Virus record (IMG/VR): IMGVR_UViG_2718218361_000004
DNA: 38,014 nt
Source of the DNA: a virus
Taxonomy: Duplodnaviria; Heunggongvirae; Uroviricota; Caudoviricetes
Direction: 5' to 3' (one strand)
Made by a program: the position numbers and the translations under genes. Positions within the stretch are counted from its first letter, which is position 1; the number at the start of each line of letters is the position of its first letter. Under the pieces are notes generated by a model. It ran no database searches. It saw only the letters and a program-made list of their open reading frames with translations, and was not told the DNA's origin. Positions 4,266 to 38,014 of this stretch are shown one piece after another.

Positions 4266-4747
4266 GACAGCAGCCCTCCCACCGTTTTACTGATATCACT
4301 TAAGGCAGATGTTGCCATGTCCTGCAGATTATTCAGTTGCGTACTGAGATCACCGAACATATCGGACAGGGATTCATCCACCCGTTTGAGCGACAGGGTG
4401 AACTCAATCCGGCGCGGCATACCGTCGCGGAAAAACTCCGTTTTAGTCAGATTCAGTCCCTCAATCACATACATGCCGTAAATCGTGCCGCTGCCTTCAA
4501 TCAGGGGCCATGCTTTTCCCTGTTCTGCCATCTGCTCCAGAGCCAGCAACGACAGCCTGCCGCCCGTTATCTCCGGCATAAGAACACCAGAAAGCGTCAG
4601 CATGTCGTTGTCCGGTCCCAGAAACTGCGTGGACGGACGACGGTTTACCCGGCTGTTTGCCGCATGTCGCCAGCTGCGTTGATACTGCAGTTCCTGATAC
4701 GGAACGGTGCGCAGCATAAACACGTACAATCCCAGCACCATCATCAT
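4262..4747 (-). CDS. tail protein gpU
   Basis: 161-aa ORF overlapping D by 4 nt, the position and size of P2 U. Confidence 0.8.
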   Translation of the reverse strand: MMMVLGLYVFMLRTVPYQELQYQRSWRHAANSRVNRRPSTQFLGPDNDMLTLSGVLMPEITGGRLSLLALEQMAEQGKAWPLIEGSGTIYGMYVIEGLNLTKTEFFRDGMPRRIEFTLSLKRVDESLSDMFGDLSTQLNNLQDMATSALSDISKTVGGLLS

Positions 4748-7700
4748 GCGTCGTATCCCCCCTGATCGCTGTAGTTACTCCTGGCTTTTGCCTTCAGCCT
4801 GCGTTCACGTTCATCAAGCTGGCGTGCCACCTCCCGCGCAATATCCTGCGCACTTTGTCCTGGCTGCGTCTGAATGATGATCTGCGTCGGTGCCTCAATC
4901 CGGTGAACGGGCGGCACAGTGGCTGCACGACTCACCATCGCTTCGCCGCCTTTCGCGGGAAGTGCCAAAGGATGCAACGGTGGAAGCTCTGCAGGCGCGG
5001 CAGCAACGCCCATCATTCCGGCAACAACGGCAGCCAGTGCAGCTGTATTTCTCCGGCTGGTCACATTTGCCGGGCCGTTAACAATTTCCGGCCCGTTTTC
5101 ACCGACGATGCCAAACTGCCCGCGCGGGATATAGCCGCCGCTGTCATACATCCCCGCAAAGCCATATCCCCATGACGGAAAATCACCCGATGGCATCATC
5201 ACTTTACCGTCTGCATTCACCGTCGCAGGTTGCTGACGCGTCACGCTTTCCGGTAGTTTTGCCTTTGCGGCCTCTTTACTGACAATGCCGAGTTTCTCCA
5301 GCAACCAGGAAACGCCTGATTTCAGGGAGTCCAGCGGATGCATGACCATATTCAGCCCTTCCGCCAGTGCCTCCCCGAATCGTCGCCCCATTGCCGCTGC
5401 GCTCTGCAGTTCGGCAGAGGTCGACTTAACAGGCGTCAGCAGATCAGTAAACCAGCCCCACAGCGCCTGTACTTTGTCGCCAATCCACTGGAACACGGGC
5501 TTAAGCGGTTCGAATGCTGCACTGACGGGACCTGCCGCCACTTTGAATCCTTCCACCACACCAGCGAGAAATGCGGTGATGGGTTGCCAGTATTTCCAGA
5601 CAACCAGCGCCACGCCCGCCAGTGCAGTAACCACAAGACCTATCGGACTGAGCAGAGCACCTAACAGACCAGATATGGCATACAGGGCAACGCGCAGCAT
5701 CGCCAGTGGACCAGATGCCAGTACTCGCAGCACCGTACCTGCGGCGGTCAGTCCACCGCGCAGTACTGCCAGAGGATTCATAAACATCACAGCAACCGCA
5801 CGTAAACCGGATAATCCAGACCGCAAAAGTGCAACTGGCGCACCTGCTACAGTTTTCAGGACATTTCCCGTCAGTGATGCCGTGCGGCGCAAAGACGACA
5901 ACGGCGCAGTAAGTAAACCTGCGGCGTTGCCCGATGAAGCAAGCCCGCGTCGCAGCAGTGCCAGTGGTGCGCCAGCCAACCAGGACAACGCGTTGCTGGT
6001 TCGGGTTACTGCTGCCGTAACGGAAGGTAACGTTTTGATACCCAGCACAGAGAATCCCAGACGGATGACTGCCAGCGGCCCCAGCACTGCAGCCAGCGCC
6101 ACCGCTAAGGTGCCGAGGCCCACGGTAACGGCAGCCACCACAGCGGCTACTTTCATCAGAGTGCCCGTCAGTTCCGGGTTAGCTTCCACCCAGCGACGCA
6201 ACGCCCCCGTGACGCTTTTCACCGTGTACAGAATATCCATCAGCGGCTGGCGCAGCGTTTCGCCCAGGCTGCTGAAGGTATTCTGCGCTCCGGTTTTAAC
6301 CAGCAACCACTGAGCAGAAAGTGAGTCCTTGTTGATGTCGGATTCTTTCTGCATGGAACCGAGCGCATCATTGCCCGCTGTCAGTTTTAGCTGGCGCTGT
6401 AGTTCCGGCAGGTTGTTTGCCAGTTTCGCCGCGTCATCGCCAAACTCTTTACCAAACAACATGGTCATGGCAGACAGACGCTTGTCCTGCGGCAGTGCGT
6501 TCACCTTCTCCAGCACGCGCTGGATGGTTCCCATCGCATCCTTCGTCATCTGCTTTTCAATCACTTCAGGATTGAGTTTCAGCAGATTCATCCCTTCAAA
6601 AAAACTCTTGCTTTGCATGGTGGCAATGGACAATTCACGCACCATCGCGTTTGCTGCACTGGCTGCAACCTCCGGCGCAGCGCCCAGTGTCAGGAAGGTG
6701 GAACCCAGCGCCGCCGCTTTACGATAATCGAGACGGTCAGCCACACCGCCCAGGCGTTGCATCACATCAATGATGTCCGCCCCTTTCGACATGGCGTTAT
6801 CATCCAGATAGTTCAGCGCATCACCGAGCTGTTCAATATTGCGGGTAGGTATTTTGTAGAGCTGGGCGATTTTCCCCAGACTTTCTGACAGTTCATCCGC
6901 TGGCAGCTCAAAGGCTGTTGCCGCCTTTGCCGCCGTGCTGGCGAAGGCCAGCAGGTCACGTTTCTGGTCTTCCCAACTGTCGTCAGGGTTTGCAACGTTC
7001 ATACGCGCACCACCTTCAACCAGTGCAGCGAAGTCCACCGCACCGTTTTCCATCGGCAACTGTTCGCTGGCAGCTTTGATGGCATCCTGCATTTCATAAA
7101 AACGTGCAGTACGGTTGCCATTATCGTCACGCAGACCATTGACCTGCTTTGCCACACCTTTCATGGCATCTTCCATGCTGGTATAGCTTTTTACTGCCGC
7201 CATCACTGGCGTCCCCATTGCCAGCCCTGCAGCCGTGGTGGTGGCTCCGGCTCCTGCGATGCGATCGCGCACCTCCAGCGAACGGGCATAACTGGCACGC
7301 GCTGCATTCATCCTGCGCTGAGCTTCCCCCAGTCGCTTCAGCCGCGCCTCCTGTTTCGAAAGTTCCTGGTTATAACGTGATGTTTCACGGGCTAAACGGG
7401 CAGTTGCTCCCGCATCATCTTTCGCAGAAATTCCCGCCCGGTACAGTTCAGCACGCACAAGCGCCGTTTGCTTCTGCAAATATTTTTGTTGTTCTTCCAG
7501 GCGTTGGACTGCCAGCGTTTGCCGACCTAAAGCCACAAGATGCCTTTGTGATGGTTGCTCCATCGCCTCCAGCTCAGAGCTAAGCAAATTAGCCTTCTGT
7601 CTGGCATAGTTCAGCCTGTCGCCTAACTTCTTGTTATCAGCCTGCAGCTTGCGAAATTTTTCCAGGCTGTTACCCGCCTGATTGAGTTGCTTTAATGCGT

Positions 7701-7821
7701 CACGGGAGTTTCTGATTGCGCCAGCCAGCTCTTTCGAACTGGCCTGTGCAGCACGGAATGGGCGGGTGAGTTTGTCAACCGCATTAAGAATGACCTGCAG
7801 GCGCAGGTTGTTATCACTCAT
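4744..7821 (-). CDS. tail tape measure protein gpT
   Basis: 1025-aa Ala/Gly-rich ORF with coiled-coil N-terminal half and hydrophobic repeats, immediately downstream of E/E'. Confidence 0.88.
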   Translation of the reverse strand: MSDNNLRLQVILNAVDKLTRPFRAAQASSKELAGAIRNSRDALKQLNQAGNSLEKFRKLQADNKKLGDRLNYARQKANLLSSELEAMEQPSQRHLVALGRQTLAVQRLEEQQKYLQKQTALVRAELYRAGISAKDDAGATARLARETSRYNQELSKQEARLKRLGEAQRRMNAARASYARSLEVRDRIAGAGATTTAAGLAMGTPVMAAVKSYTSMEDAMKGVAKQVNGLRDDNGNRTARFYEMQDAIKAASEQLPMENGAVDFAALVEGGARMNVANPDDSWEDQKRDLLAFASTAAKAATAFELPADELSESLGKIAQLYKIPTRNIEQLGDALNYLDDNAMSKGADIIDVMQRLGGVADRLDYRKAAALGSTFLTLGAAPEVAASAANAMVRELSIATMQSKSFFEGMNLLKLNPEVIEKQMTKDAMGTIQRVLEKVNALPQDKRLSAMTMLFGKEFGDDAAKLANNLPELQRQLKLTAGNDALGSMQKESDINKDSLSAQWLLVKTGAQNTFSSLGETLRQPLMDILYTVKSVTGALRRWVEANPELTGTLMKVAAVVAAVTVGLGTLAVALAAVLGPLAVIRLGFSVLGIKTLPSVTAAVTRTSNALSWLAGAPLALLRRGLASSGNAAGLLTAPLSSLRRTASLTGNVLKTVAGAPVALLRSGLSGLRAVAVMFMNPLAVLRGGLTAAGTVLRVLASGPLAMLRVALYAISGLLGALLSPIGLVVTALAGVALVVWKYWQPITAFLAGVVEGFKVAAGPVSAAFEPLKPVFQWIGDKVQALWGWFTDLLTPVKSTSAELQSAAAMGRRFGEALAEGLNMVMHPLDSLKSGVSWLLEKLGIVSKEAAKAKLPESVTRQQPATVNADGKVMMPSGDFPSWGYGFAGMYDSGGYIPRGQFGIVGENGPEIVNGPANVTSRRNTAALAAVVAGMMGVAAAPAELPPLHPLALPAKGGEAMVSRAATVPPVHRIEAPTQIIIQTQPGQSAQDIAREVARQLDERERRLKAKARSNYSDQGGYDA

Positions 7822-8304: not shown

Positions 8305-8820
8305 TCAGAGGCCGAGGGCGTTGCGGTGCGCTTCCATCAGGTCCACACCGTCCACAATTTCCACCATGTTGATAAGGTCCACTTCATAGAGCACCTCACC
8401 ATTGATGGTCAGCTTCGCGTAGCTGTTGGTACTGGTCACTTTGGTGGTGTTGCTTTCGCCCGTCTTCCACTCGCCGGAATCCACTTCTTTGTGACGTCCA
8501 CGCACGACAAGCTCCACGGCCTGCACTTCCCCGGTATCGTCACGCTGGATAGAGCCGGTAAAGCGCAGCTGGATGCCATCCACCGTGGATTTGCCCATCT
8601 GCTTAAACAGCAGCAGTTCAGTACCACCAATGGAAAATTCTGTATCCAGTGCACTGTCATCCAGTCCCAGATCCACATCCACCGCCCCCGGCATACCGCC
8701 GCCGCGATACTTCTCATATTTGCGGGTGAATTTCGGCAGCGTCAGCGACTCAACGATCCCCTGCCAGTTGTTCCCGTCGTTAAACAAGTTCAGATGTTTT
8801 AATTTACGTGGTAAAGCCAT
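8305..8820 (-). CDS. tail tube protein gpFII
   Basis: 171-aa ORF downstream of FI, matching P2 FII in size and order. Confidence 0.85.
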   Translation of the reverse strand: MALPRKLKHLNLFNDGNNWQGIVESLTLPKFTRKYEKYRGGGMPGAVDVDLGLDDSALDTEFSIGGTELLLFKQMGKSTVDGIQLRFTGSIQRDDTGEVQAVELVVRGRHKEVDSGEWKTGESNTTKVTSTNSYAKLTINGEVLYEVDLINMVEIVDGVDLMEAHRNALGL

Positions 8821-8829
8821 GTTGTCCCC

Positions 8830-10002
8830 TTACGCGCTGACCTGGCTGGCGAAATTCACCAGGTACTGATCGGTGATGCGCTGGCGCAGCATCAGATTTT
8901 CAAGTGGCGGCACTGGCGTGTAGTCATAGTCGATGGTGAGTTTTCCGGCTTTCAGCGTGTCTTTGTCGTTCACCGACTCATCCAGCCAGCAATCACCACC
9001 AATGAGATAGCCCTGACTGACCAGGCTGCGCATTTTGGCGCGGATACCTTCGATAATGTCGCGGGCCAGCGACGGGTTAAGCGGTTTATCCACCGCCCAC
9101 ATGTGTGCTTCTGCCATCGTGTCCATCAGCACCTGCGCCGTGCGGGTGTAGTTTTCGAAGGCAAAGAGCGGGTCATCACTCAGGCTGCGGGAACCCCAGA
9201 AGCGGAAACCGTCTTTACGCACAAGCGTGGTGACGTCGTTCTGGTTAAGCAGTCCCGCATCGGTTGCCGGGTCCTGCAGATCCCAGAACACATCAGCAGA
9301 AATTCCGGTGACACCGTTCACGCCCACGTTGGACAGGCTTTTGTGCCATCCGGTCTGCTCGTCAATTTTGGCGCGCAGACCAAGCGCACGGGCGGTGGCA
9401 TATGCCGTTGCTTCGGCATTCAGCACCGTGTCCCAGCCAGTAAAGTCGGGCCAGATCAGCATCCCTTCGCGCTGGCTGAAGTTTTCGCGGTAAGTGATCG
9501 CCTCCTGCACTGTCTTGCAGCCATACGCTGACAGGTAAGCAAACCCACGCAGGCTTTGCGCCACGCTCAGCAACTCAGTCGCAACGGCTTTGTTATCGTG
9601 ACCAGGTACGCCGAGAATGCGCGGTTTAACGCCGAGCTGTGTCTGGGCAGATAACAGGGCTTTCATGCCTGTTTTTTTACCTTCAGCAGTCACTGCGCCG
9701 ATGATATTGGTCGTGGTTTCTTCTTCCGTTTCCCCCTGCGGCACACGCACAACAACGGTCACGGGTTTTGCCTGGTCAGCGATGGCATCCAGCGAACGGG
9801 CCAGCGTGCCGGACTCACCCGCTTTACCGCTGGCAGTCAGCACATCAGTGATCAGCACGGGTTTATTAAGAGGAAACATTTTTGCATCGGCATCATCGCC
9901 CGTGCAGACCATACCCACGATGGCGGTGCTCACCGTGGTAATGGATCGGGTGCCTTCGTTGACTTCAACAACGCGCACCCCGTGGTGGTAATCCTGAGCC
10001 AT
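8830..10002 (-). CDS. contractile tail sheath protein gpFI
   Basis: 390-aa ORF at the head of the FI-FII-E-T-U-D operon. Confidence 0.88.
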
Positions 10003-10144: not shown

Positions 10145-10711
10145 TCAGGGGGATTCATTGCTCTTATTTGCCGGAAATTTTCTATAAATTGTGGAAACAC
10201 CCACATCAAAAATCAGTGCAATACGCTGTCTTGATTCTCCGGCCTCGAGTAAGCGTCCAATCTGTGCCCACTGTTCTGTGGTCAACTTAGGACGGCGTCC
10301 ACCTACTCTGCCTTTGGCGCGAGCTGCAGCCAGCCCCGCCCTGGTACGTTCAACTATCAGTTCGCGTTCCATTTCAGCCAGGGCACCCATGACATGAAAA
10401 AAGAAACGGCCCATTGGGGTGCTGGTATCAATACTGTCAGTCAGGCTTCGGAAATTCACACCACGCTGGCGCAACTCTTCTATCAGCGTAACAAGATGCC
10501 GCATACTGCGCCCCAACCTGTCCAGCTTCCAGACAACCAGCGTGTCTCCTGCCGTTAGTGTCCTGAGCAGTTTTTTCAGCCCTGGTCTGTCGGACTTTGT
10601 GCCACTGATTTTGTCCTCAAAAATCCGCTCACATCCCGCGCAGTTCAGTGCATTACGTTGCAAATCGGTGTTCTGGTCATTTGTTGACACGCGTACATAG
10701 CCAATAAGCAT
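10145..10711 (-). CDS. serine DNA invertase (Hin/Gin/Pin/Cin family)
   Basis: N-terminus MLIGYVRVSTNDQNTDLQRNAL with the catalytic Ser motif and a C-terminal HTH (GVSTIYRKF). ATG at 10711 preceded by GGGGG; directly abuts the invertible segment. Confidence 0.9.
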   Translation of the reverse strand: MLIGYVRVSTNDQNTDLQRNALNCAGCERIFEDKISGTKSDRPGLKKLLRTLTAGDTLVVWKLDRLGRSMRHLVTLIEELRQRGVNFRSLTDSIDTSTPMGRFFFHVMGALAEMERELIVERTRAGLAAARAKGRVGGRRPKLTTEQWAQIGRLLEAGESRQRIALIFDVGVSTIYRKFPANKSNESP

Positions 10712-10778
10712 GATCATCCCCCTGAATAAAAACCGGGGATGATGCCAGTTAGCCATTATCTCTGCATTTTCATAAACG

Positions 10779-10812
10779 TTGGTTTGGGAGAAGCGGCAAA
10801 ACGGAATGTAGG
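10779..10812. repeat. left inverted repeat with hix/gix-like recombination site
   Basis: 34-bp stretch ttggtttgggagaagcggcaaaacggaatgtagg is the exact reverse complement of 12326-12359; the adjacent cccAAACCAACGTTTat resembles a hix/gix half-site. Confidence 0.75.
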
Positions 10813-11152
10813 AACAGGGGAAAATCAGATACCGGACATGACCTCTTTTGCCAGTGGTGATGGATGGATGAAATTACCCAACGGGAAAATCCTGCAATAT
10901 GGTCGTGGTGCGATTACGCCGACATTATCGACGCAAACAATGAGAATTACATTCAGCATCCCTTTTCCTAAAGAAGTGGACTGCGCCATGCTTACCCATT
11001 CTGGTGATGGTGGTGCGCCTTTAGGCGCTGGACGGGGATTCGTGATGACTGCAGAAGGTCCAACACTAACCGGTTTTAATTCCGCTTACAGAACTGCATC
11101 AACCAGCTCCACAGTATCGATGAATTACAGTTGGTGGGCTGTTGGTGAGTAA
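10781..11152 (+). CDS. alternative tail-fibre C-terminal exon, silent in the present orientation
   Basis: Begins inside the inverted repeat in frame with [18 protein letters not shown], the same peptide found in gpH at its repeat. The upstream part of the track ORF (10739-10780) lies outside the segment and is probably not translated. Confidence 0.7.
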
Positions 11153-11172
11153 TTTTATTCAGGGTGATTTAT

Positions 11173-11616
11173 ATGAACGAATATGTTTATAGCGCAAGGC
11201 ATAATGCTTTTTTCCCTGTGGATATGATTGATAAATATAAATCAGAGGGATGGGATTTATCAGACGCAAAGGAAGTAAATCAAAATATTATCAGTGAATT
11301 TATGGCTGAACCGCCACAAGGAAAAATCCGTATTGCCGGAGATGATGGGCTGCCTGCGTGGGCAGATATTCCTCCACCCACGCATGAAGAGCTTATTGAA
11401 ATTACTGAATCAGAAAAACAGCTACTAATTAACCAGGCTAACGAATACATGAACAGTAAGCAATGGCCTGGCAAAGCAGCTATTGGTCGTCTGAAAGGTG
11501 AGGAACTGGCGCAATATAATTTGTGGCTGGATTACCTGGACGCACTGGAACTGGTGGATACCTCCAGTGCTCCAGATATTGAATGGCCTACACCTCCGGT
11601 AACTCAGGCCAGCTAA
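11173..11616 (+). CDS. tail-fibre assembly protein, alternative copy (Tfa')
   Basis: 147 aa from the ATG at 11173; C-terminal motif VDTSSAPDIEWPTPP shared with the convergent Tfa. Confidence 0.75.
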   Translation: MNEYVYSARHNAFFPVDMIDKYKSEGWDLSDAKEVNQNIISEFMAEPPQGKIRIAGDDGLPAWADIPPPTHEELIEITESEKQLLINQANEYMNSKQWPGKAAIGRLKGEELAQYNLWLDYLDALELVDTSSAPDIEWPTPPVTQAS

Positions 11617-11983
11617 TCTCAGGAGCCGTCGAAGTGTCGACGGCTTTTACTTCTTTTTTGTAGTCCATCCAGGCAGATAGTTTTTCTTTATCTGTACTGC
11701 TGATATCACCAAGCATTAATTCCACCCGCCAGTCAGCTGTGACATTATCGGCATGAGCAAGTAACTGCATTCGCTGATTTTCAGCACGTGCGACATAATC
11801 AATCGCCGGAGATTTCAGTACCGGTAAACCATTTTCATCTGACGTGATTAATTTACCCCCTTCCTGCTGTCCGGCAATTAATTCATTGTATAAGTCTGTA
11901 CTTATCTCAACAATGTCAGCAGGCATGTCGCTGTTTATACCATCAAAGAAAAAACCATTAGTCGATTTTGAGAAATAAATCAT
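11588..11983 (-). CDS. tail-fibre assembly protein (gpG-like Tfa), active orientation
   Basis: ATG at 11983 with an AGGT Shine-Dalgarno, 9 nt after the gpH stop; C-terminus VDTSTAPEISWPELP. Confidence 0.78.
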   Translation of the reverse strand: MIYFSKSTNGFFFDGINSDMPADIVEISTDLYNELIAGQQEGGKLITSDENGLPVLKSPAIDYVARAENQRMQLLAHADNVTADWRVELMLGDISSTDKEKLSAWMDYKKEVKAVDTSTAPEISWPELPEV

Positions 11984-11991
11984 AGATATAC

Positions 11992-13407
11992 CTATACACC
12001 GATTGCTACCCAAAAACAGGACCTTTCATATTTGACAATTTCTCCCTGAGATATACCGCCAACAATTATATAGAACTGTGATTTGCTGATATCAGAACAG
12101 TTCGCTATGCCCATTGCAGATATACCAGCCACCGACGTTGTATGTGGCACAGCCAACAGCGCAAGTGAACGATTTGGGAATGTTACCGGGTAAGTCACCG
12201 TATAGTTTGATGCTCCACTGACAATACCCCACTGAATAATCAGACCTGAAGGAAGTTTTTGAAAACCCGTTGATGAAAGTGAACTGGCAAATGCCGCCAT
12301 ATCCGGAATTTGGTTTTGCCCGTTACCTACATTCCGTTTTGCCGCTTCTCCCAAACCAAGGTATGCGAGAAGACCAGCTACATCCTTTCCACTCAAATTA
12401 GTCAGCGTATTGTCCAGCGGTTGTTTACCTGCCAGCGCATTAAGCATTGTCGTGGCAAAGTTCGGATCATTCCCCAGCGCCGCCGCCAGTTCGTTCAGTG
12501 TATCCAGTGCAGCAGGTGCAGAGCCTACCATTGCTGCAATCGCCGATTTCACAAAAGCCGTGGTGGCAATCTGTGTATTGTTGACCGACTGTGCCGCAGT
12601 AGGTGCTGTTGGCGTTCCGGTAAGTGCCGGACTCGACAACGGCGCTTTCAGTGCCAGCGCATTGTTAATGGTGGTGCTGAATTTCGGGTCATTGTTTATG
12701 GCTGCGGCTATTTCTTTCAGCGTGTCCAGCGTGGCTGGCGCACCATTAATAACGGCCTTCAGTGCCGCCTGAACAAACGCGGTGGTCGCAAGTTGCGTGG
12801 TATTATTCCCCGCCGCTGGCGTTGGCGCTTTGGGGGTTCCGGTAAATGTTGGGCTGGCTTTTGGCGCATACTGTGAATGTGGATCTGGTGCGGCAAGGTG
12901 TTTTGCCATCAGATCATCCACGTACACCTTCAGCTCCAGTGCCTTGTCATCCACATACTTGCGGGTTGCCAGCACTATGGCAGGATCGATTTTCAAGGTG
13001 ATATTGTCCGTGCTGCTGGTAATCAGCACCATGCGCACGGTCTGGGTGCGCCCGCTGCCTTCAGCCAGTTGCGGCTTATAGCTTTCCGGGCAGTTGCCCA
13101 CGGCAATCAATGCCCCTGACTCATCAAACAGGCCCACTTCACGTATCCACCAACCGCCCTCGTTTTCAGGGATCACCTGTTCAGCAATAATCTGGCTGCT
13201 GTTCTGCGGGTCGATATAGAGCATATTCAGCGCAGCCCGGCGTTTCTCATTTACCAGTGCAGTCTGCTTTGCGTCCGGCGTCGGCAATGCTCCGCCGCCA
13301 TCGCCCACCGCCATATGGGTAATTTTTAGCGGCACACCGAGCGCGGCGGCGCTGGCAAGTTTCGCCGCGCCAATATCCGTCAGCAGGGTATAAAATTTTG
13401 TGCTCAT
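11992..13407 (-). CDS. tail fibre protein gpH (constant N-terminal part plus currently attached variable C-terminus)
   Basis: 471-aa ORF with Ala/Thr-rich repeats; crosses the right inverted repeat at 12326-12359, so the C-terminal ~110 aa are invertible. Confidence 0.88.
   Translation of the reverse strand: MSTKFYTLLTDIGAAKLASAAALGVPLKITHMAVGDGGGALPTPDAKQTALVNEKRRAALNMLYIDPQNSSQIIAEQVIPENEGGWWIREVGLFDESGALIAVGNCPESYKPQLAEGSGRTQTVRMVLITSSTDNITLKIDPAIVLATRKYVDDKALELKVYVDDLMAKHLAAPDPHSQYAPKASPTFTGTPKAPTPAAGNNTTQLATTAFVQAALKAVINGAPATLDTLKEIAAAINNDPKFSTTINNALALKAPLSSPALTGTPTAPTAAQSVNNTQIATTAFVKSAIAAMVGSAPAALDTLNELAAALGNDPNFATTMLNALAGKQPLDNTLTNLSGKDVAGLLAYLGLGEAAKRNVGNGQNQIPDMAAFASSLSSTGFQKLPSGLIIQWGIVSGASNYTVTYPVTFPNRSLALLAVPHTTSVAGISAMGIANCSDISKSQFYIIVGGISQGEIVKYERSCFWVAIGV
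12326..12359. repeat. right inverted repeat with hix/gix-like recombination site
   Basis: Reverse complement of 10779-10812; the adjacent tctcccAAACCAAGGTatgc resembles a hix half-site. Confidence 0.75.
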
Positions 13408-15954: not shown

Positions 15955-17007
15955 TCATTCAAAATTAATAATGTCGGAAAATATATCCTGCATTAAACAA
16001 GAAATATCAATAAGAGTTTTTTCCTTAATAGGATCAGAGATCTCCAAGGACTTTATCACGAACAATATTCGTTCAGCTGCTGGTAAATAGTGAGATGGAT
16101 CAGACGTTTCAATTGCCGAAAAAAATATAGCTATTCCAGCAATCGCAAGAATCATCAGAATACCTTCACCTTCACATATAATGGACGCAATCCTAATCCC
16201 CCATTTGTCAGCCTCCTTCTCAACCTCTGATTCAACTAAATCAGGCTGCTGATGATTCATCATGGCATGAGAATATTCATGAGCGGCTACGAATAACTCA
16301 CAGCCAAAGACCATATTATATATAATCTTTTGCCCTACAGGACAGAAGTTAATTATCGATGTATAAGCAAGTTCACCACGTACATTGTAATTCTTAAAAA
16401 AATCCCTCCATTCGTTTAAGTCAATCTTGCTTTGTAATAAAGCGCTTCTATTCTTCTCACTACTCAAATATTTTTCCCACTCTGACCGCCACTCTTTTTC
16501 ACTACTACCTTGCAGAAGAGTATTAGGATAACTGCTAACAAACAAACTAATTACACCATGAATAAATTGAAAAATCCCAGACTCAAAAATTGTGAAAACC
16601 TTTGACTTTCCGTCTAGGCATTTAACTGGCGCGGCAAGTGCACTAACTCTGCCGGTTGGAGCACAACAAAACCCACCATAGTTTTGGTGATCAAAAGGAA
16701 ATATCTTTGCTACTAATTCAACCTTACTCATCAAGCGAGATGCAATGCTATAACTCACACGATCATCATAGATTGTTGGAAGAGTAACTACACCTTGAAT
16801 ATTGTTTGATAACTCTTCAATACAATCAGAAGGTAAATTATCCATTTTATTACGCACATAAGAAAAACCCTCATCACTATTTAATGACTGAGCCAACTGA
16901 TCCTCTTTATATACCTGAGTGCCTAGACTATTCTTTATAATATACTCTTCAATATATCTTTCTAGTTTTTTATAATCATCATTATATTCAGACATTAATT
17001 TAATCAT
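15955..17007 (-). CDS. AT-rich cargo protein with C-terminal HExxH metallopeptidase-like motif (ImmA/IrrE-like pattern)
   Basis: 350-aa ORF in a visibly AT-rich island between V and S. Carries HEYSHAMMNH followed by E-x-E-K-E-A-D-K-W and a hydrophobic stretch ILMILAIAGIAIFF; the N-terminal ~250 aa are unrecognised. Confidence 0.6.
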   Translation of the reverse strand: MIKLMSEYNDDYKKLERYIEEYIIKNSLGTQVYKEDQLAQSLNSDEGFSYVRNKMDNLPSDCIEELSNNIQGVVTLPTIYDDRVSYSIASRLMSKVELVAKIFPFDHQNYGGFCCAPTGRVSALAAPVKCLDGKSKVFTIFESGIFQFIHGVISLFVSSYPNTLLQGSSEKEWRSEWEKYLSSEKNRSALLQSKIDLNEWRDFFKNYNVRGELAYTSIINFCPVGQKIIYNMVFGCELFVAAHEYSHAMMNHQQPDLVESEVEKEADKWGIRIASIICEGEGILMILAIAGIAIFFSAIETSDPSHYLPAAERILFVIKSLEISDPIKEKTLIDISCLMQDIFSDIINFE

Positions 17008-25570: not shown

Positions 25571-26266
25571 TTAAAATTTAGCAAGCTCCATATAAGAAAT
25601 AGCATCATTAAAGACCGACACATGTTCTTCAGGAATTATTGCCGAGGCTCCACTAGTTAGTTCAAAGCTAAATTTAGAGTCATGATATAGCCCCCCAACT
25701 TTTATTTTATCGAGTTTAAAATCATTATCCAAAACAAATTTTTTCAAATCATTTAAAGCATCTCCACTAGAATTCAGCTCTAAACACGCCCTTGTTTTAT
25801 CAGTAACAGGAACATTTGAAACTTTCACCTTTGAGATGGCGAAGACTTTGACTCCAAACTCCTCCCTAATTATTTTCATAAAAGCCTTGAGATCTACCGT
25901 CAAGTTTCCATAGGCAACATTTACCCCTTCACCTTTTGACAAGAAATCAATAAAAGACTTAACTGTCTTCGGAGGATTATAAAAAGTCAACAAACATAAT
26001 TTATTACTTAATGTTTGGATAGAAAAACCAATCTGTTCAAAAACAATCCTTTCGAACTCTAAAATATCACCAAATGGATCAGAAACTGGCTCCAACATTA
26101 TAGTTTTTTTATTAAAAGTCGCAGATATTCCATTGTGAATAGTTTCAAACTTAGTAAAACCAGCACCAATAGCATCAGAATAAGGGGTGTTTTTGATAAA
26201 ATCAAAGATCGCTTCAGAACTGGTTCTGATCTTTAATCTCATCCACTTTAATCTTAACTGTGACAT
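25571..26266 (-). CDS. cargo operon gene C, hypothetical protein
   Basis: 231 aa from the ATG at 26266 with AAGGAG 5 nt upstream; AT-rich; no recognisable motif by eye. Confidence 0.7.
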   Translation of the reverse strand: MSQLRLKWMRLKIRTSSEAIFDFIKNTPYSDAIGAGFTKFETIHNGISATFNKKTIMLEPVSDPFGDILEFERIVFEQIGFSIQTLSNKLCLLTFYNPPKTVKSFIDFLSKGEGVNVAYGNLTVDLKAFMKIIREEFGVKVFAISKVKVSNVPVTDKTRACLELNSSGDALNDLKKFVLDNDFKLDKIKVGGLYHDSKFSFELTSGASAIIPEEHVSVFNDAISYMELAKF

Positions 26267-26285
26267 ATCCACTCCTTATGATGAA

Positions 26286-27350
26286 TTAGCTAATTTCCAT
26301 TATAATAGAATAAGCTCTATTTTCAATTAATTTATTAAATCTATCGGTTTCTCTAGCTGAAAGCTTTTGAGGTTTACTGAAATATTGACCGTTAGACTTA
26401 TATTTTTTCACTCCTTTTACTAAATATGAAAAATTAGTACAGTTTAGTGGATCTCCGAATTGAGCTTCGAGTTCATAAATATCTGGGTCTGCTAGTTTCT
26501 CTTTAACCTTCCATTTTATTTTCCAGATATAAAAGCCCCTATCATAAAGATCACTAAGTTCATCAGATTTAAGAACTCCCTCTCCTTTCAGAGATGCTTT
26601 TGACACATGAACTCCAGTTTCAGTATTTCCCTCTTCTGCTTCTATTGTTTCAGGTTTTGGATGATATACATAAGCATCCGTAACATCGTCTAATTCATAT
26701 CCATCTAGGCTACGGATTAATTTATCGAAAAACAGTGTCCTAACATCTGCGGAGCTATTATGAGCAAGAGTAATTTCGTTTAATTTTAAATCAAGATTAC
26801 TGTCATTATCTTGTTCACTCTGAATCGAAATTATATGCCCGAGGAGGAGATCTTCATAATCTTTGAGATTCTCGTTATCGGGACGACGGATGCTATAACC
26901 TTTATCAATAGGCTCGATTTCAATTAAAGCTTCTTTATTTACAGCCTGCTTAAAATCGCTTTTACTATAATTGGTCGATAGATATCTTATATCTATAAGA
27001 ACTCGAGAACCATCAATAATAATTTTACAATAATCATCCTGAGCAGTTATTTCTTTTTTTAACTTCTCTGCTGCCACTATGATATCGTCCTTAGTGACAC
27101 TGGATTCAATTCTTACACATGTATTTTTTTCAGCTCTTGTCTGACCTCCGAGTAATGTTGCTATCTTCTGATGTTCATAATAATCATGAGTCATCCGAGA
27201 GTAGTTTTTGGCTAGATCTTTTCTAGGGGTTTTTTTACAAATAATAGTACCTCTTTCCAAGAAAAGATCCTGTATTTCATTTAATGTAATCTGCTTTTGA
27301 TTCAAAGCATCACATAAAGCCTTGTCAGTTACACTATGAATATTTTTCAT
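26286..27350 (-). CDS. cargo operon gene B, hypothetical acidic protein
   Basis: 354 aa from the ATG at 27350 with a GGGAG Shine-Dalgarno; its ATG overlaps the stop of gene A (ATGA). Confidence 0.7.
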   Translation of the reverse strand: MKNIHSVTDKALCDALNQKQITLNEIQDLFLERGTIICKKTPRKDLAKNYSRMTHDYYEHQKIATLLGGQTRAEKNTCVRIESSVTKDDIIVAAEKLKKEITAQDDYCKIIIDGSRVLIDIRYLSTNYSKSDFKQAVNKEALIEIEPIDKGYSIRRPDNENLKDYEDLLLGHIISIQSEQDNDSNLDLKLNEITLAHNSSADVRTLFFDKLIRSLDGYELDDVTDAYVYHPKPETIEAEEGNTETGVHVSKASLKGEGVLKSDELSDLYDRGFYIWKIKWKVKEKLADPDIYELEAQFGDPLNCTNFSYLVKGVKKYKSNGQYFSKPQKLSARETDRFNKLIENRAYSIIMEIS

Positions 27351-28411
27351 TTCGGCTCCCAAGAAATAACCTCAGAAGAAAAGAATTCTTTTACAGTAGA
27401 GACAACTTTGACATCCAGATCTTCAAGTCTCTTTTTAGCCTCTTCATCCAGTCCATACTCATGAACATACTTTTCGATCCCACGCTGAAAATGCGACATA
27501 ACTCTATTATCTTTCTCACGATACGCCAATCTTATTCTAATTTTATTTATACCATCTAAAATTTGATAATTAGAAAGCAAGTCTAGCAAATAAAAGAATT
27601 CATTATCGCTATTACCTTTTCTATTGTAATATATAACAAATCCCTCTGGATAAACCATTTCCTCAATACCTTTAGCCCTATTGAATTTATAAACAGGACC
27701 ATGTTTAATAATCATAAATGGTGATAACAAAACTTCAATAGTTGCAGGAAGGTATTTTTCAGTTACAGCAACCTTATGGAAAATAAGTTGAGGATAATAG
27801 AATCCATAATCCTCATCTGGAAATTCTTTTTTTGCAATTAAGTCATTCATATCATTCGTTACTGCCAACATATAATTAATAAGAAATGGATCAATTATAT
27901 GAATTTGCTGACCAGCACATAACGGAATCTTTTCTAAGTTTACAGCCTTATCTCTCCTTCCTTTAGTAGGTTTAGGAGGATTAAAGAAATCATAAAAATC
28001 ATGTTGCAATTGATTATCATGATTAAAAACAAATAATAAACCTCGAACTTCGAAATCAATTTGAGAAAAGTTATATTTTTCTGACCATTCCTGGCTATAT
28101 CGAGCACAATCAATTGTTTTTGCTAAAGACTCTAATGCAGACTCTATCTTTGTTGCATTAATAGAACCAGCCTTATAACTTTTCAAATCAGTATTTAAAT
28201 AAATAATTTTATTTAAATATGGATCTTTATAACTAAATACCACATCCACTGGGTGTGTGTGCTTTTGTTTTTTACCTTCAGGCTTATGTTTTGTTTCATT
28301 ATCACAAGAGAAATCTTGGTCACAGGGGCCATGCTGTTGCCACTTAAAACGACTCATAAGATCGTTAGAAATGCGTTTTGCTAAGTCTTCAATAGGGCCA
28401 TTCTCTGCCAT
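27347..28411 (-). CDS. cargo operon gene A, hypothetical protein
   Basis: 354 aa with AAGGA Shine-Dalgarno. The N-terminal region has a possible PD-(D/E)xK-like arrangement (PVDVVF…NTDLKSYK), which is an inference only. Confidence 0.7.
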   Translation of the reverse strand: MAENGPIEDLAKRISNDLMSRFKWQQHGPCDQDFSCDNETKHKPEGKKQKHTHPVDVVFSYKDPYLNKIIYLNTDLKSYKAGSINATKIESALESLAKTIDCARYSQEWSEKYNFSQIDFEVRGLLFVFNHDNQLQHDFYDFFNPPKPTKGRRDKAVNLEKIPLCAGQQIHIIDPFLINYMLAVTNDMNDLIAKKEFPDEDYGFYYPQLIFHKVAVTEKYLPATIEVLLSPFMIIKHGPVYKFNRAKGIEEMVYPEGFVIYYNRKGNSDNEFFYLLDLLSNYQILDGINKIRIRLAYREKDNRVMSHFQRGIEKYVHEYGLDEEAKKRLEDLDVKVVSTVKEFFSSEVISWEPK

Positions 28412-34638: not shown

Positions 34639-34763
34639 GATGCAACATTCCTCTTTTAGCAATGATTAATCAGGATGAATACTGATCGTTTGTATTATGT
34701 GAACACTGCAAACATACGATCACATCATGAAATCGTCAAGGTAAAAGTTCACTTGGAGTGACC
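34639..34763. promoter_or_regulatory. immunity switch region (lytic/lysogenic promoters and operators)
   Basis: 125-bp AT-rich region between divergent apl/cox and cI; individual promoter elements not resolved. Confidence 0.5.
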
Positions 34764-35327
34764 ATGAATTTGGAAAAAGGCGGTCGTGGGGCCATAGAGC
34801 GCATGGTTGAAGCCTATGGTTTCAAGACAAGACAAGCTTTGTGTGATCATTTGGGCATTTCTAAAAGCACCTTAGCCACGCGCTATATGCGTGATTCATT
34901 CCCGGCAGAATGGGTAATCCAATGTGCACTTGAAACCGGCACGTCGCTAGAGTGGCTAACTACTGGGCAAGGTTCAAAAGAAAGTTCACAAAAAGAAAAC
35001 ACAAAAGAGATCGAAAGGAAGATTTTATCAAGCGGAAAACTACTTCCTGATGGTTACTACATTTTCGACAACAACTTTTTGCCTGAAAAACTAAAAAAAC
35101 CTTTTGTTGTGATCGATGGCGCATCAGAGTTTATCTGTGATTCGGATTATGAGGATGTACGTGATGGTAAGTGGATCGTTGATATTGATGGCGAGGTTGC
35201 TATCAGGAATCTGACAAGACTGCCGGGACGTCGCCTAAATGTCGATGGCGGCAGCAGTTCCTTTGAATGCAAAATAGATGAAATTGATATCATAGGAAAA
35301 ATTAGAAGCGCGATCGTCAATTATTAA
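34764..35327 (+). CDS. immunity repressor CI (186 CI-like)
   Basis: 187 aa from the ATG at 34764 (GGAG 5 nt upstream); N-terminal [25 protein letters not shown]. Confidence 0.8.
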
Positions 35328-35536: not shown

Positions 35537-35547
35537 GGTTGCTTCAT

Positions 35548-36879
35548 ATGAATAATGATATGACTTTTGAAAACAGAGATGAGTATAATAGAAAAATCAT
35601 TGCTGAAAAAATAATAAGCTTACTCGAGTCCCCCTTAAAAATATCCCCTATTGTTATCGATGGGGACTGGGGTACCGGTAAAACCGAATTTTCAAAAAAA
35701 TTAGCGGCATTGATTGAAAAAAATGAATCTGGGCATAAAGTAGTATATATTGATGCATTTACTGAAGATCATAATGATGCTCCCATACTTACTATAATGG
35801 CTGCAATAGTTGCATTATATCCAGAGAGTGAAAAGAAGGAATTAATATCAAAGGCATTACCAGCATTGAGATTTGGACTTAAAACTGTACTCAAAGCTGG
35901 CGCTGGGTGGATTTTAAAACAAAATGCAGATGATATTGCGGATGAATTCGAAGATGCTATTAAAGATGCGGCTAACTCAGCTATAGATGGTACTGTAGAA
36001 GCACTGCTTGATGATCATATTGAAGCAAAGAAACATTTGCTTGCTCTCAAGGAAGTACTTGCTGAACTAACTAGCGAAAATAAAATAACAATTATCATTG
36101 ACGAACTTGACCGTTGTAAACCAAGCTTTGCCATCTCTATCATCGAAAATATAAAACATGTTTTTGACACTGAAAATCTTAACTTCTTGTTAGTTGCTAA
36201 CATCTCACAATTGAAAGCATCAATAAATCATATTTACGGTGCAGGTGTTGACTCAGAAAGATATCTTGATAAATTTATAAAATTCACTTACAGCCTGCCA
36301 GTGACTTTCACTGAAAACAATTACGATAAAATTTTGGCTTCGAACTCTCATTTTAGAATGCTATGTAACGAGTCTGAAAGACTAAAAGAAATTGGAGAAA
36401 GTAGTATTCATATAGTTCAAAAATTTATCGAACTAAAAGGCTTGTCGCTACGGGAAGTTGAAACCTTATCAAGATATCTAGAAATTTATCAAATTTTATC
36501 TCAAAATAAAATCAGCAATAAATTTATACCAGGCTATTGCTGTTATCGAACCCTTGCAGTAATTCTTTATTCGTTTGGTCGTGAACTGGCCCTTAACTAC
36601 GTAGAAGATAAAATAGATGCACAATTAATAATCAATTTCTTCGGTGTTAATAGACTCCCATATCAGACAGATCAATATAACAACAACATCTACTATTATG
36701 CATTATTTGGTATAACTTATAAATATATGCCAGAAGGTTCTCCTTTACTTCCTTCTGAAAACGATGAAAAAAACAGATGGGCTGAAATAAGTGATTATCA
36801 TATTTTAAAAGGAAATGCAGGTGTAGAAGACCCTGTTAGAATATTCAAAAACACCTTAAAAGTTTTCTTGCTCCAATGA
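35548..36879 (+). CDS. KAP-family P-loop NTPase
   Basis: Walker A GDWGTGKT and KAP-type Walker B IIIDELDRC; no obvious transmembrane insert; 11 nt after the small ORF; AT-rich. Confidence 0.8.
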   Translation: MNNDMTFENRDEYNRKIIAEKIISLLESPLKISPIVIDGDWGTGKTEFSKKLAALIEKNESGHKVVYIDAFTEDHNDAPILTIMAAIVALYPESEKKELISKALPALRFGLKTVLKAGAGWILKQNADDIADEFEDAIKDAANSAIDGTVEALLDDHIEAKKHLLALKEVLAELTSENKITIIIDELDRCKPSFAISIIENIKHVFDTENLNFLLVANISQLKASINHIYGAGVDSERYLDKFIKFTYSLPVTFTENNYDKILASNSHFRMLCNESERLKEIGESSIHIVQKFIELKGLSLREVETLSRYLEIYQILSQNKISNKFIPGYCCYRTLAVILYSFGRELALNYVEDKIDAQLIINFFGVNRLPYQTDQYNNNIYYYALFGITYKYMPEGSPLLPSENDEKNRWAEISDYHILKGNAGVEDPVRIFKNTLKVFLLQ

Positions 36880-36961: not shown

Positions 36962-38014
36962 ATGGCAGTACGAAAACTCAACACAGGTAAATGGATTTGT
37001 GAATGCTACCCCGCCGGGCGCAATGGGCGGCGTGTGCGTAAGCAGTTTGCAACTAAGGGTGAAGCATTGGCTTTTGAGCGTCACACGATGGAAGAAACCG
37101 AAGCAAAACCCTGGCTGGGTGAATCAGTGGATCGTCGAACACTGAAAGACGTGGTTGAGCTATGGTTCAAACTACATGGTAAATCTCTGACGGCTGGGCA
37201 GCATGTCTATGACAAATTGCTGTTGATGGTTGACGCTCTGGGAAATCCCATTGCAACCGATCTCACCTCTAAAATGTTTGCCCACTATCGAGATAAACGC
37301 CTGACAGGAGAGATCTACTTCAGCGAAAAATGGAAGAAAGGAGCAAGCCCGGTCACCGTTAACCTGGAGCAAAGCTATCTAAGTAGTGTTTTTAGCGAAC
37401 TATCCCGCCTGGGCGAATGGTCGTATCCGAACCCACTGGAGAACATGCGAAAATTCACCATCGCAGAAAAAGAGATGGCATGGCTTACCCATGAACAGAT
37501 TGTTGAATTGCTGGCTGATTGCAAACGTCAGGACCCAATTCTGGCACTGGTAGTCAAGATATGCTTAAGCACAGGCGCACGCTGGCGAGAAGCAATAAAT
37601 CTTACCCGTTCACAGGTGACTAAATACCGAATTACCTTTGTCAGAACGAAGGGGAAGAAAAACAGAAGCATTCCCATCAGTAAAGAGCTTTACGAAGAGA
37701 TTATGGCACTTGATGGGTTCAATTTCTTTACAGACTGCTATTTTCAATTTTTATCCGTGATGGAAAAAACGTCTATCGTGCTCCCTCGCGGTCAACTGAC
37801 ACACGTTCTGCGTCATACGTTTGCGGCGCATTTTATGATGTCGGGTGGAAACATCCTGGCCTTACAAAAAATTCTCGGGCATCACGATATAAAAATGACG
37901 ATGCGTTACGCACATCTGGCACCGGATCATCTGGAAACGGCGCTCCGTTTCAACCCTCTGGCAACGCTGCCAAGTGGCGACAAAGTGGCGGCAGCGGTTG
38001 GCATTACCCCGTAA
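36962..38014 (+). CDS. int: tyrosine integrase (P2 Int family)
   Basis: N-terminus MAVRKLNTGKW… resembles P2 Int (MAIKKLDDGRY…); C-terminal HxxR…Y catalytic region (VLRHTFA…RYAHL); stop codon is the last 3 nt of the window. Confidence 0.9.
   Translation: MAVRKLNTGKWICECYPAGRNGRRVRKQFATKGEALAFERHTMEETEAKPWLGESVDRRTLKDVVELWFKLHGKSLTAGQHVYDKLLLMVDALGNPIATDLTSKMFAHYRDKRLTGEIYFSEKWKKGASPVTVNLEQSYLSSVFSELSRLGEWSYPNPLENMRKFTIAEKEMAWLTHEQIVELLADCKRQDPILALVVKICLSTGARWREAINLTRSQVTKYRITFVRTKGKKNRSIPISKELYEEIMALDGFNFFTDCYFQFLSVMEKTSIVLPRGQLTHVLRHTFAAHFMMSGGNILALQKILGHHDIKMTMRYAHLAPDHLETALRFNPLATLPSGDKVAAAVGITP

Follow-up and report, generated by a model that had tools for sequence, protein, structure and literature searches.

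The window (the whole stretch of DNA analysed, 38,014 nucleotides) carries, in the tail-fibre operon of a P2-like prophage, a locus that is very probably a two-state site-specific inversion switch of the Gin/Cin type. This is an already known, textbook type of host-range switch. The constant N-terminal part of the tail fibre gene H lies outside an invertible segment, which holds two opposed pairs, A and B, each made of a fibre tip and an assembly chaperone (Table 1). In the present orientation the constant part is joined to tip B; after inversion it would be joined to tip A. The initial annotation delimited the locus by the segment and the invertase gene, and both belong to it, but it omitted the constant part of the fibre, which is also part of the system. 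Three pairs of near-identical prophages differ by exact inversion of this segment.

Table 1. Positions of the components of the tail-fibre switch in the window.
Feature	Position	Strand	Size or sequence	Evidence or remark
Din-family serine DNA invertase (Gin/Cin/Pin/Hin homologue)	10145-10711	-	188 aa	Pfam, identity to Gin/Cin, RefSeq start
Putative recombinational (Fis-dependent) enhancer	10622-10693	-	coding nt 19-90 of the invertase gene	positional homology
Left 26-bp crossover site	10767-10792		TTTTCATAAACG TT GGTTTGGGAGAA	central dinucleotide 10779-10780
Left arm, perfect inverted repeat	10779-10812		34 bp
Invertible segment	10780-12358		about 1,579 bp between central dinucleotides	three natural pairs
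Tip cassette A	10781-11152	+	123 aa + stop	Pfam Gp53-like_C 1e-12
Tail-fibre assembly chaperone A, partner of tip A	11173-11616	+	147 aa	Pfam Caudo_TAP 2e-31, PHROG 188, RefSeq start
Tail-fibre assembly chaperone B, partner of tip B	11588-11983	-	131 aa	Pfam Caudo_TAP 2e-24, RefSeq start
Tip cassette B	11992-12357	-	121 aa + stop	Pfam Gp53-like_C 5.6e-14; currently fused to the constant part
Right arm, perfect inverted repeat	12326-12359		34 bp
Right 26-bp crossover site	12346-12371		read on the - strand, TTCTCGCATACC TT GGTTTGGGAGAA	central dinucleotide 12358-12359
Constant N-terminal part of tail fibre gene H	12360-13407	-	about 349 aa	Pfam Phage_tail_fib 7e-65

The prophage and its tail module

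The window is the DNA of an E. coli prophage of the P2-like type (Peduoviridae), integrated beside ybjL. Two strains, H14 and S21, are 100% identical to it, and both carry the segment in the window's orientation. We defined a P2-like tail module by the gene order V-W-J-I-H-G followed by FI-FII-E-E'-T-U-D-ogr, with domains of the P2 family. The order found was V-W-J-I-H-chaperone ... FI-FII-E-T-U-D-ogr, with matches to the Pfam profiles Tail_P2_I, Phage_sheath, Phage_GPD, and Phage_tail_fib, and in H14, whose sequence is identical, the RefSeq annotation agrees with this assignment to the P2 type. The best phage matches are Peduoviridae. The end of the window cuts the integrase gene; the set of virion, lysis, replication, and immunity genes is otherwise of the full P2 type. 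The prophage is apparently a complete P2-like one, with immunity of the 186 type.

Inverted repeats and crossover sites

On re-inspection, the two 34-nt arms are indeed exact reverse complements of each other (TTGGTTTGGGAGAAGCGGCAAAACGGAATGTAGG), and each lies within a fibre reading frame at the shared 11-residue peptide, in frame in both ORFs, as the initial annotation had it. The chance expectation for such a 34-nt pair in 38 kb is about 2e-12. The 18-nt core of the repeat occurs only twice in the window when up to three mismatches are allowed (0.04 occurrences expected), and a weaker likeness continues beyond the arms, over 89 nt at 81% identity (10767-10855 and 12283-12371). A search of the window for a third copy of the repeat, which would indicate a multi-state shufflon, returned these two copies only. 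A multi-state shufflon does occur at the other P2 locus of enteropathogenic E. coli (EPEC).

We identified Din-family sites as two inverted 26-bp sites with imperfect 12-bp half-sites and identical central dinucleotides. Two such sites, inversely oriented and sharing a central TT, are present. Both are in register with the Mu sites gixL/R (TTATCCAAAACC TC GGTTTACAGGAA) and with cixL of P1 (CAATCCTAAACC TT GGTTTAAGAGAA), in which the annotated crossover falls between the two central T. The gix-like sequences had been described as adjacent to the repeats; they exist, but straddle the outer edge of each repeat rather than lying just beside it. Of each site, the outer half falls beyond the repeat, whose first 14 nt consist of the central TT and the inner half-site. 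The same 26-bp sites bound the natural inversions described below.

The invertase gene and a putative enhancer

The serine invertase gene lies just outside the invertible segment, where it had been placed, between the segment and the tail sheath gene FI. Its product has the features of Din-family recombinases, i.e., a length of around 190 aa, a catalytic serine at position 9 or 10, and a C-terminal helix-turn-helix. It matches the Pfam profiles Resolvase (3.5e-53) and HTH_7 (1.7e-15), is 75% identical to Gin of Mu and 78.6% identical to Cin of P1, and matches the Gin structures 3UJ3 and 4M6F (E 1e-92), with the stretch GYVRVSTNDQ aligned with Ser9 of Gin in 4M6F. The Ser9 motif (MLIGYVRVSTNDQ) is intact; its mutation, in combination with reads of one orientation only, had been named as a finding that would count against the switch. 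Among the NCBIfam models, the invertase gave sub-threshold matches only. The RefSeq start of the gene is the same as in strain H14. A simple consensus scan for a sigma-70-like promoter between the crossover site and the start codon found none, and its only hit upstream of the gene was a weak hairpin (10731-10750).

At its 5' end, the invertase gene includes a region that aligns without gaps with the enhancer that the P1 record places at cin nt 19-90, with an identity of 78% to P1 and 72% to Mu. Against P1, this region shows no extra conservation over the rest of the gene (78% versus 73%). Because it is no more conserved than its surroundings, we regard the enhancer as putative.

Fibre tips and chaperones

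The layout of the locus is that of an invertible fibre module: the constant N-terminus is outside, opposed pairs of tip and chaperone are inside, and both fusions are in frame. The expressed fibre ORF encodes 471 aa (11992-13407, - strand). Tip A is part of a promoterless ORF (10739-11152, + strand) that RefSeq labels as an orphan 'gp53-like domain-containing protein'. It is silent in the present orientation because it has neither the N-terminal part nor a promoter. The fibre was said to have two different C-termini of about 110 aa each, and this proved accurate: counted from GLG the tips are 123 aa (A) and 121 aa (B) long, of which 112 and 110 aa follow the shared 11-mer. Their first ~65 aa are 51% identical and the remainder is unalignable, a divergence which suggests that they may bind different receptors. 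Tip A is 96% identical to the expressed fibre tip of phage pro483, and tip B is 100% identical to a silent cassette of phage Cartapus.

Structural comparisons gave little further information on the tips. A sequence search of the PDB returned only marginal matches for tip A (the short tail fiber gp92, E 0.019), and with the whole fibre it matched only a shaft repeat. Single-sequence AlphaFold2 predictions of the two tips had a mean pLDDT of 38.7 and 35.2, and these models are unusable. No NCBIfam model matched the fibre or the chaperones. The two chaperone genes, both with Caudo_TAP domains, are convergent and their 3' ends overlap by exactly the 29 nt initially reported. Their products are 27% identical. 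Chaperone B is in the expressed orientation and chaperone A is silent.

Near-identical prophages differ by exact inversion of the segment

Inverting the segment in silico produced an intact fibre of 473 aa with tip A fused in frame. Intact fibre ORFs of this length are present in the flipped relatives F637 and pCombat13F7-1, in agreement with the expectation that inversion swaps the tip of H in frame. We found three natural pairs of near-identical prophages that differ by exact inversion. Between the prophages of F1267 and F637, the inversion is the only difference in 9.5 kb, and those of N24 and N17 likewise differ by the inversion alone. In the third pair, the chromosome of Combat13F7 and a 45-kb extra contig of the same strain are identical except for the inversion, i.e., both orientations occur in one assembly. 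The arms of Combat13F7 differ at repeat positions 20 and 24, and these differences move with the segment. This confines the exchange to the outermost 19 nt of the repeat, a stretch that includes the central TT. Across the pairs, the exchange falls within the outer 19-26 nt (19 nt in Combat13F7, 26 nt in N24/N17).

Among complete genomes of E. coli with matches over at least 80% of a 3.5-kb query, 12 have the segment in the window's orientation and 29 have it flipped. Strain 1105 has the flipped orientation; its identity across the 3.5-kb query is 99.4%, and it encodes an identical invertase protein (WP_016237350.1). Relatives at 94-97% identity also occur in both orientations. The prediction that the locus is heterogeneous within a population thus receives indirect support, from the single assembly with both orientations and from a mixed locus in EPEC (PMC4272514). 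The inversions at the crossover sites were observed in near-identical relatives rather than in the source strain itself, in which we infer that the segment also flips.

The differences between genomes could alternatively stem from RecA-dependent homologous recombination at the repeats, without any site-specific event. The arms are identical over 34 bp and 81% identical over about 89 bp, and could in principle serve as a substrate for rare exchange of this sort. We consider this origin highly improbable, because the arms are identical over only 19 nt (Combat13F7) or 26 nt (N24/N17) and the exchange still took place in that stretch with the gix core, and because an intact homologue of Gin and Cin adjoins canonical sites. 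Flipping at the percent level is far above the expectation for about 30 bp of homology. The homologous EPEC locus does flip at the percent level in clonal cultures (PMC4272514). It is also improbable that the switch is frozen here, with an invertase that is unexpressed or inactive and a segment locked with tip B expressed. The intact invertase ORF with all the conserved motifs, the two intact sites with identical central dinucleotides, the flipped state of strain 1105 despite its identical invertase, and the two orientations seen at 94-97% identity all argue against a locked segment, even if the orientation shared by H14 and S21 and the lack of an invertase promoter in the consensus scan would fit it.

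Inversion in the lysogen might also have been co-opted by the host, altering a phenotype of the cell, e.g., through a fibre-derived block of adsorption, and not, or not only, the host range of the phage. Such an effect is described for Pin invertases of cryptic prophages in two reports, where PinQ/PinR and the Stf proteins of cryptic prophages are said to block the adsorption of other phages (PMC12529663; bioRxiv 10.1101/2025.03.28.646004). The full P2-type gene set of the prophage, of which only the integrase is cut, points away from co-option, and we find it scarcely credible here. The position of the fibre gene within the late operon is a further argument against it, as the late operon is silent in lysogens of P2-type phages. 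A broader reading, which we also hold to be unlikely, is that the junction serves as a portable joint for tip cassettes, with A and B aimed at two receptors, and that flipping may in addition alter the phenotype of the host. The 11-mer coding sequence and the gix-type core may then form a joint at which cassettes of Gp53-like tip and chaperone are swapped, perhaps among P2-like phages of E. coli, Citrobacter, and Klebsiella. By analogy with what is reported for PinQ/PinR, flipping in lysogens may confer a phenotype such as the exclusion of other phages. The sole observation behind the portable joint and the host phenotype is the mosaic distribution of the cassettes.

A model of the switch

In our preferred scenario, the two-state site-specific switch, dimers of the invertase would bind both 26-bp sites, and inversion would be assisted by an enhancer bound by Fis, presumably the one within the 5' end of the invertase gene. 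The dependence on Fis and on this enhancer is presumed. The invertase would cut both sites at their central TT with a 2-bp stagger, and the strands would be rotated and rejoined, leaving the 1.58-kb segment inverted. At present, the constant 349-aa part of H would read through the site into tip B, followed by chaperone B; in the flipped orientation, it would read into tip A, followed by chaperone A. Since either tip can be read from the constant part, a culture of the lysogen would release virions of two kinds that differ in their receptor-binding tips, and this could hedge the host range.

The significance of the locus beyond annotation is small. The ORF labelled 'gp53-like domain-containing protein', at 10742-11152, is a silent alternative end of the fibre and not a separate gene. 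In the opposite orientation, annotation pipelines split the fibre gene into a pseudogene and a fragment. Cultures that contain both orientations can lead assemblers to produce a spurious extra 'plasmid' contig. For phage therapy and for the prediction of host range in P2-like phages, each lysogen should be counted as a source of two types of virions.

Comparison with known inversion systems

The locus resembles the G segment of Mu, which is inverted by Gin. In both, the constant N-terminus of the fibre is outside the segment, two convergent C-termini with their own chaperones are inside, the invertase is just outside, and the 26-bp sites are in register. The terminal repeats of Mu are also 34 bp long. 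The two systems differ in the size of the segment (about 3 kb in Mu), in the central dinucleotide (TC in Mu and TT here), and in the 29-nt overlap of the chaperone genes found here. The tips of this locus are short Gp53-like_C domains unrelated to Sv/Sv' of Mu, and the phage itself is of the P2 type and not of the Mu type. The C segment of P1 (Cin; also Min of p15B) is similar in its invertase and in cixL, which has the same central TT and matches the inner half-site at 10 of 12 positions, and the enhancer annotated in cin aligns without gaps with the invertase gene found here. In P1, however, cin and the crossover site overlap at the 3' end of the gene, whereas here the site lies upstream of the invertase gene, 56 bp from its start, and the P1 segment is longer (4.2 kb) and has different fibre modules.

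Fibre tips are likewise switched by the Din-family systems of e14 (Pin), Salmonella Fels-2 (Fin), and carotovoricin Er. Of these, e14 is the remnant of a lambdoid phage, and carotovoricin is a tailocin. The P segment of e14 (Pin, E. coli K-12), which we compared by its published repeat only, has a repeat core, AAACCTTGGTTTGGGAGAAGG, that contains the window's CC TT GGTTTGGGAGAA (PMC4272514 Table S1). Functional evidence is available for the invertible tail-fibre locus of EPEC E2348/69 (NC_011601.1, 2977580-2979467), a P2-like locus that sequencing of clonal cultures showed in both orientations, with 93 +/- 4% in the forward one (Goldberg et al. 2014, PMC4272514 Table S1). Its gene order is that of the window: a tip and a chaperone come first, a chaperone and a tip on the other strand follow, and after them the invertase, FI, and FII. 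It also has the same core, TT GGTTTGGGAGAA; its invertase is 80% and one chaperone 69% identical. In contrast, it is truncated, the N-terminal part of the fibre being replaced by an integrase fragment, and it has other cassettes, with tips at most 51% identical and one of a different, longer type.

Among deposited P2-like phages, Cartapus, pro483, 500465-1, and the Klebsiella phages KP12 and Kp48xx match 56-63% of the 3.5-kb query at 95-96% DNA identity. Cartapus has identical 26-bp sites and an invertase annotated as 'Mu phage Gin invertase homolog'. Unlike the window, each of these phages has a different pair of cassettes, and the combination of A and B was found in chromosomes of E. coli only.

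Natural prophages differ by exact inversion of the fibre segment

The initial annotation interpreted this locus as an invertible tail-fibre switch, and this is borne out by near-identical natural prophages that differ by exact inversion and by the intact sites and invertase of the window. Two 3.5-kb queries were run against all complete E. coli genomes: the native orientation, where tip B is fused to the constant part of the fibre gene H, and the flipped one, where tip A is fused. At a coverage of at least 80% of the query, the native form matched 12 genomes and the flipped form 29. Three pairs are decisive on the question of flipping. Over 9.5 kb, isolates F1267 and F637 differ only in the 1,513 bp between the repeats, which are exactly reverse-complemented. 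N24 and N17 likewise differ by exact inversion only, one side bearing a different cassette, and an exact inversion is the sole difference between the Combat13F7 chromosome and the 45-kb pCombat13F7-1.

The two copies of the repeat (arms) differ at positions 20 and 24 in Combat13F7 and beyond position 26 in N24/N17, and these differences travel with the segment. Exchange therefore took place within the outer 19 nt of the repeat, which contain the gix-type core and the central TT. This argues for site-specific, not homologous, recombination. The expected in-frame swap of the tip is also recovered: reverse-complementing 10779-12359 in silico gives an intact 473-aa fibre carrying tip A. The 473-aa ORFs are intact in the flipped relatives F637 and pCombat13F7-1, and in strain 1105, the third one examined, the fibre region is frameshifted and the ORF is 437 aa long. 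We are highly confident that the switch is active; it probably also flips in the window's exact strain, and inversion presumably depends on an enhancer and on Fis.

pCombat13F7-1 (NZ_CP019246.1) was deposited as a circular plasmid, carries many frameshifts, and consists of the prophage and adjoining chromosomal DNA, ~16 kb from ybjL to artP. It is probably an alternative assembly of the same Combat13F7 chromosomal region. The culture, as sequenced, seems to have contained the fibre segment in both orientations, which is apparently why the extra contig was created. Annotation is affected too. In two relatives with the tip-A orientation (L003 4986-6407, L005 4988-6409), PGAP splits the fibre gene into a pseudogene ("partial, missing C-terminus") and a short ORF of its own, despite an intact full 473-aa ORF. 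The window's silent cassette (10742-11152) carries the annotation of an independent gene.

Organisation of the locus and crossover sites

We established the gene layout from ORF listing, Pfam scans, and the RefSeq annotation of the E. coli H14 chromosome, which is 100% identical to the window. Together with the comparison of the repeats, these show that the locus had been described accurately throughout, including the serine invertase just outside the segment and, as ORFs and Pfam agree, the two fibre C-termini and two convergent assembly genes with a 29-nt 3' overlap.

Features of the invertible fibre locus and its surroundings
Feature	Position	Strand	Source
Tape measure T	4744-7821	-	ORF/Pfam/RefSeq
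E' and E	between T and FII	-	ORF/Pfam/RefSeq
Tube FII	8305-8820	-	ORF/Pfam/RefSeq
Sheath FI	8830-10002	-	ORF/Pfam/RefSeq
Recombinase, 188 aa	10145-10711	-	ORF/Pfam/RefSeq
Left crossover site, outside to inside: TTTTCATAAACG TT GGTTTGGGAGAA	10767-10792		
Promoterless ORF, second Gp53-like_C tip (tip A)	10781-11152	+	ORF/Pfam
Chaperone A, Caudo_TAP	11173-11616	+	ORF/Pfam/RefSeq
Chaperone B, Caudo_TAP	11588-11983	-	ORF/Pfam/RefSeq
Current tip of H (tip B)	11992-12357	-	ORF/Pfam
Fibre gene H, 471 aa; Phage_tail_fib N-terminal domain and Gp53-like_C	11992-13407	-	ORF/Pfam/RefSeq
Right crossover site, outside to inside: TTCTCGCATACC TT GGTTTGGGAGAA	12346-12371	-	
Baseplate genes I, J, W, V	beyond H	-	ORF/Pfam/RefSeq

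The two tips and two chaperones fill the interval from the recombinase gene to the constant part of H. The tips are 51% identical across their first ~65 residues and unalignable thereafter, and the chaperones are 27% identical. The prophage is P2-like with 186-type immunity genes (CI, CII/CP76), and its integration site in E. coli adjoins ybjL. In the P2 gene map, Z/fun lies between the fibre-assembly gene G and FI, a position occupied here by the invertase and the invertible segment.

The arms (10779-10812 and 12326-12359) proved on re-inspection to be exact reverse complements over 34 nt (TTGGTTTGGGAGAAGCGGCAAAACGGAATGTAGG), as annotated; a perfect pair of this length is expected ~2e-12 times by chance in 38 kb. 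Allowing up to 3 mismatches, the 18-nt core occurs only in the two arms (0.04 occurrences expected). Weaker complementarity, 81% over 89 nt (10767-10855 versus 12283-12371), reaches into the segment because tips A and B are still related there.

The recombinase shares 75% of its residues with Mu Gin and 78.6% with P1 Cin. Against the sequences of the Gin crystal structures it gives a match with E 1e-92, and it retains the catalytic Ser9 motif GYVRVSTNDQ. The crossover sites align in register with Mu gixL/R (TTATCCAAAACC TC GGTTTACAGGAA) and P1 cixL (CAATCCTAAACC TT GGTTTAAGAGAA), and the P1 record places crossover between both central T of cixL. This points to crossover at 10779/10780 and 12358/12359, which would give an invertible segment of ~1,579 bp. 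The perfect repeat begins at the central dinucleotide and extends inward, and the outer half-sites differ from each other, as expected. The Cin enhancer is annotated at nt 19-90 of cin; the stretch aligning with it without gaps (10622-10693, 78% identity) is no better conserved than the adjoining coding sequence, so we regard it only as a putative recombinational enhancer. The interval separating the left crossover site from the invertase start codon contains a small hairpin followed by TTTAT (10731-10750, minus strand), which might curb transcription running on from the late fibre operon into the invertase gene.

Relation to published systems and origin of the cassettes

This is a Gin/Cin/Pin/Hin-family system of the standard kind, carried by a P2-like prophage. 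Goldberg et al. 2014 (PMC4272514), who sequenced clonal E. coli cultures, saw orientations existing side by side in e14, one Mu prophage, and two EPEC E2348/69 P2-like prophages; for the simple P2 locus (NC_011601.1 2977580-2979467), Table S1 of that paper lists 93 +/- 4% forward and a repeat core that matches TTGGTTTGGGAGAAG. This locus has the gene order of the window (two tip and chaperone cassettes, invertase, FI, FII), an identical TT GGTTTGGGAGAA core, an 80% identical invertase, and one chaperone with 69% identity. Milman et al. 2023 (PMC9881135) name tail-fibre genes as one of the families in which programmed inversions are enriched. Phages such as Cartapus have sites identical to the window's, and their adjoining gene is already annotated "Mu phage Gin invertase homolog". 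Systems of this class are thus known from earlier descriptions and from experimental measurement.

The expressed fibre of phage pro483 has a tip with 96% identity to tip A, which is also present in a Citrobacter phage; the silent cassette of Cartapus matches tip B at 100% identity. In many relatives from E. coli and Klebsiella, the flanks and just one of the two cassettes are shared with the window. Such sharing indicates that phages swap cassettes with one another around a conserved junction, as has long been known to happen with tail fibres. The tips probably differ in receptor specificity; sequence searches of solved structures gave no informative match. Within the 3' end of chaperone gene B, the conserved AVDTSTAP motif is encoded by a perfect palindrome (11621-11648, GCCGTCGACACTTCGACGGC). 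A T-rich run follows this palindrome on the plus strand, and the palindrome scores there as a terminator immediately past the end of chaperone gene A; it could terminate the fibre operon once the segment is inverted.

Other genes of the prophage

Three adjacent ORFs of 233, 358, and 354 aa (25571-28411, minus strand), hypothetical in RefSeq, occupy the tin/old cargo position of P2, with the portal gene on one side and the DinI/replication genes on the other. They contain no Pfam domains and match the PADLOC models Hp3, Hp2, and Hp1 (E 1e-10, 2e-39, and 1e-64) and PHROGs of unknown function; they may form a three-gene anti-phage system. The same slot of the related Combat13F7 prophage holds a "retron St85 family effector". 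Baseplate gene V and tail completion gene S are separated by an inserted hypothetical ORF of 350 aa (15955-17007, minus strand). F1267, F637, Combat13F7, and N24 carry prophages that lack this ORF but are otherwise collinear; the ORF has no match in Pfam or PHROG and a single weak one in PADLOC (peptidase_U41, 7e-8). Finally, a KAP-family P-loop NTPase (35539-36879, plus strand; Pfam 4e-51) has the CI repressor gene (34758-35327) on one side and, on the other, the integrase gene, whose start is at 36962 and which the window end truncates; the NTPase looks like a further cargo (moron) gene.
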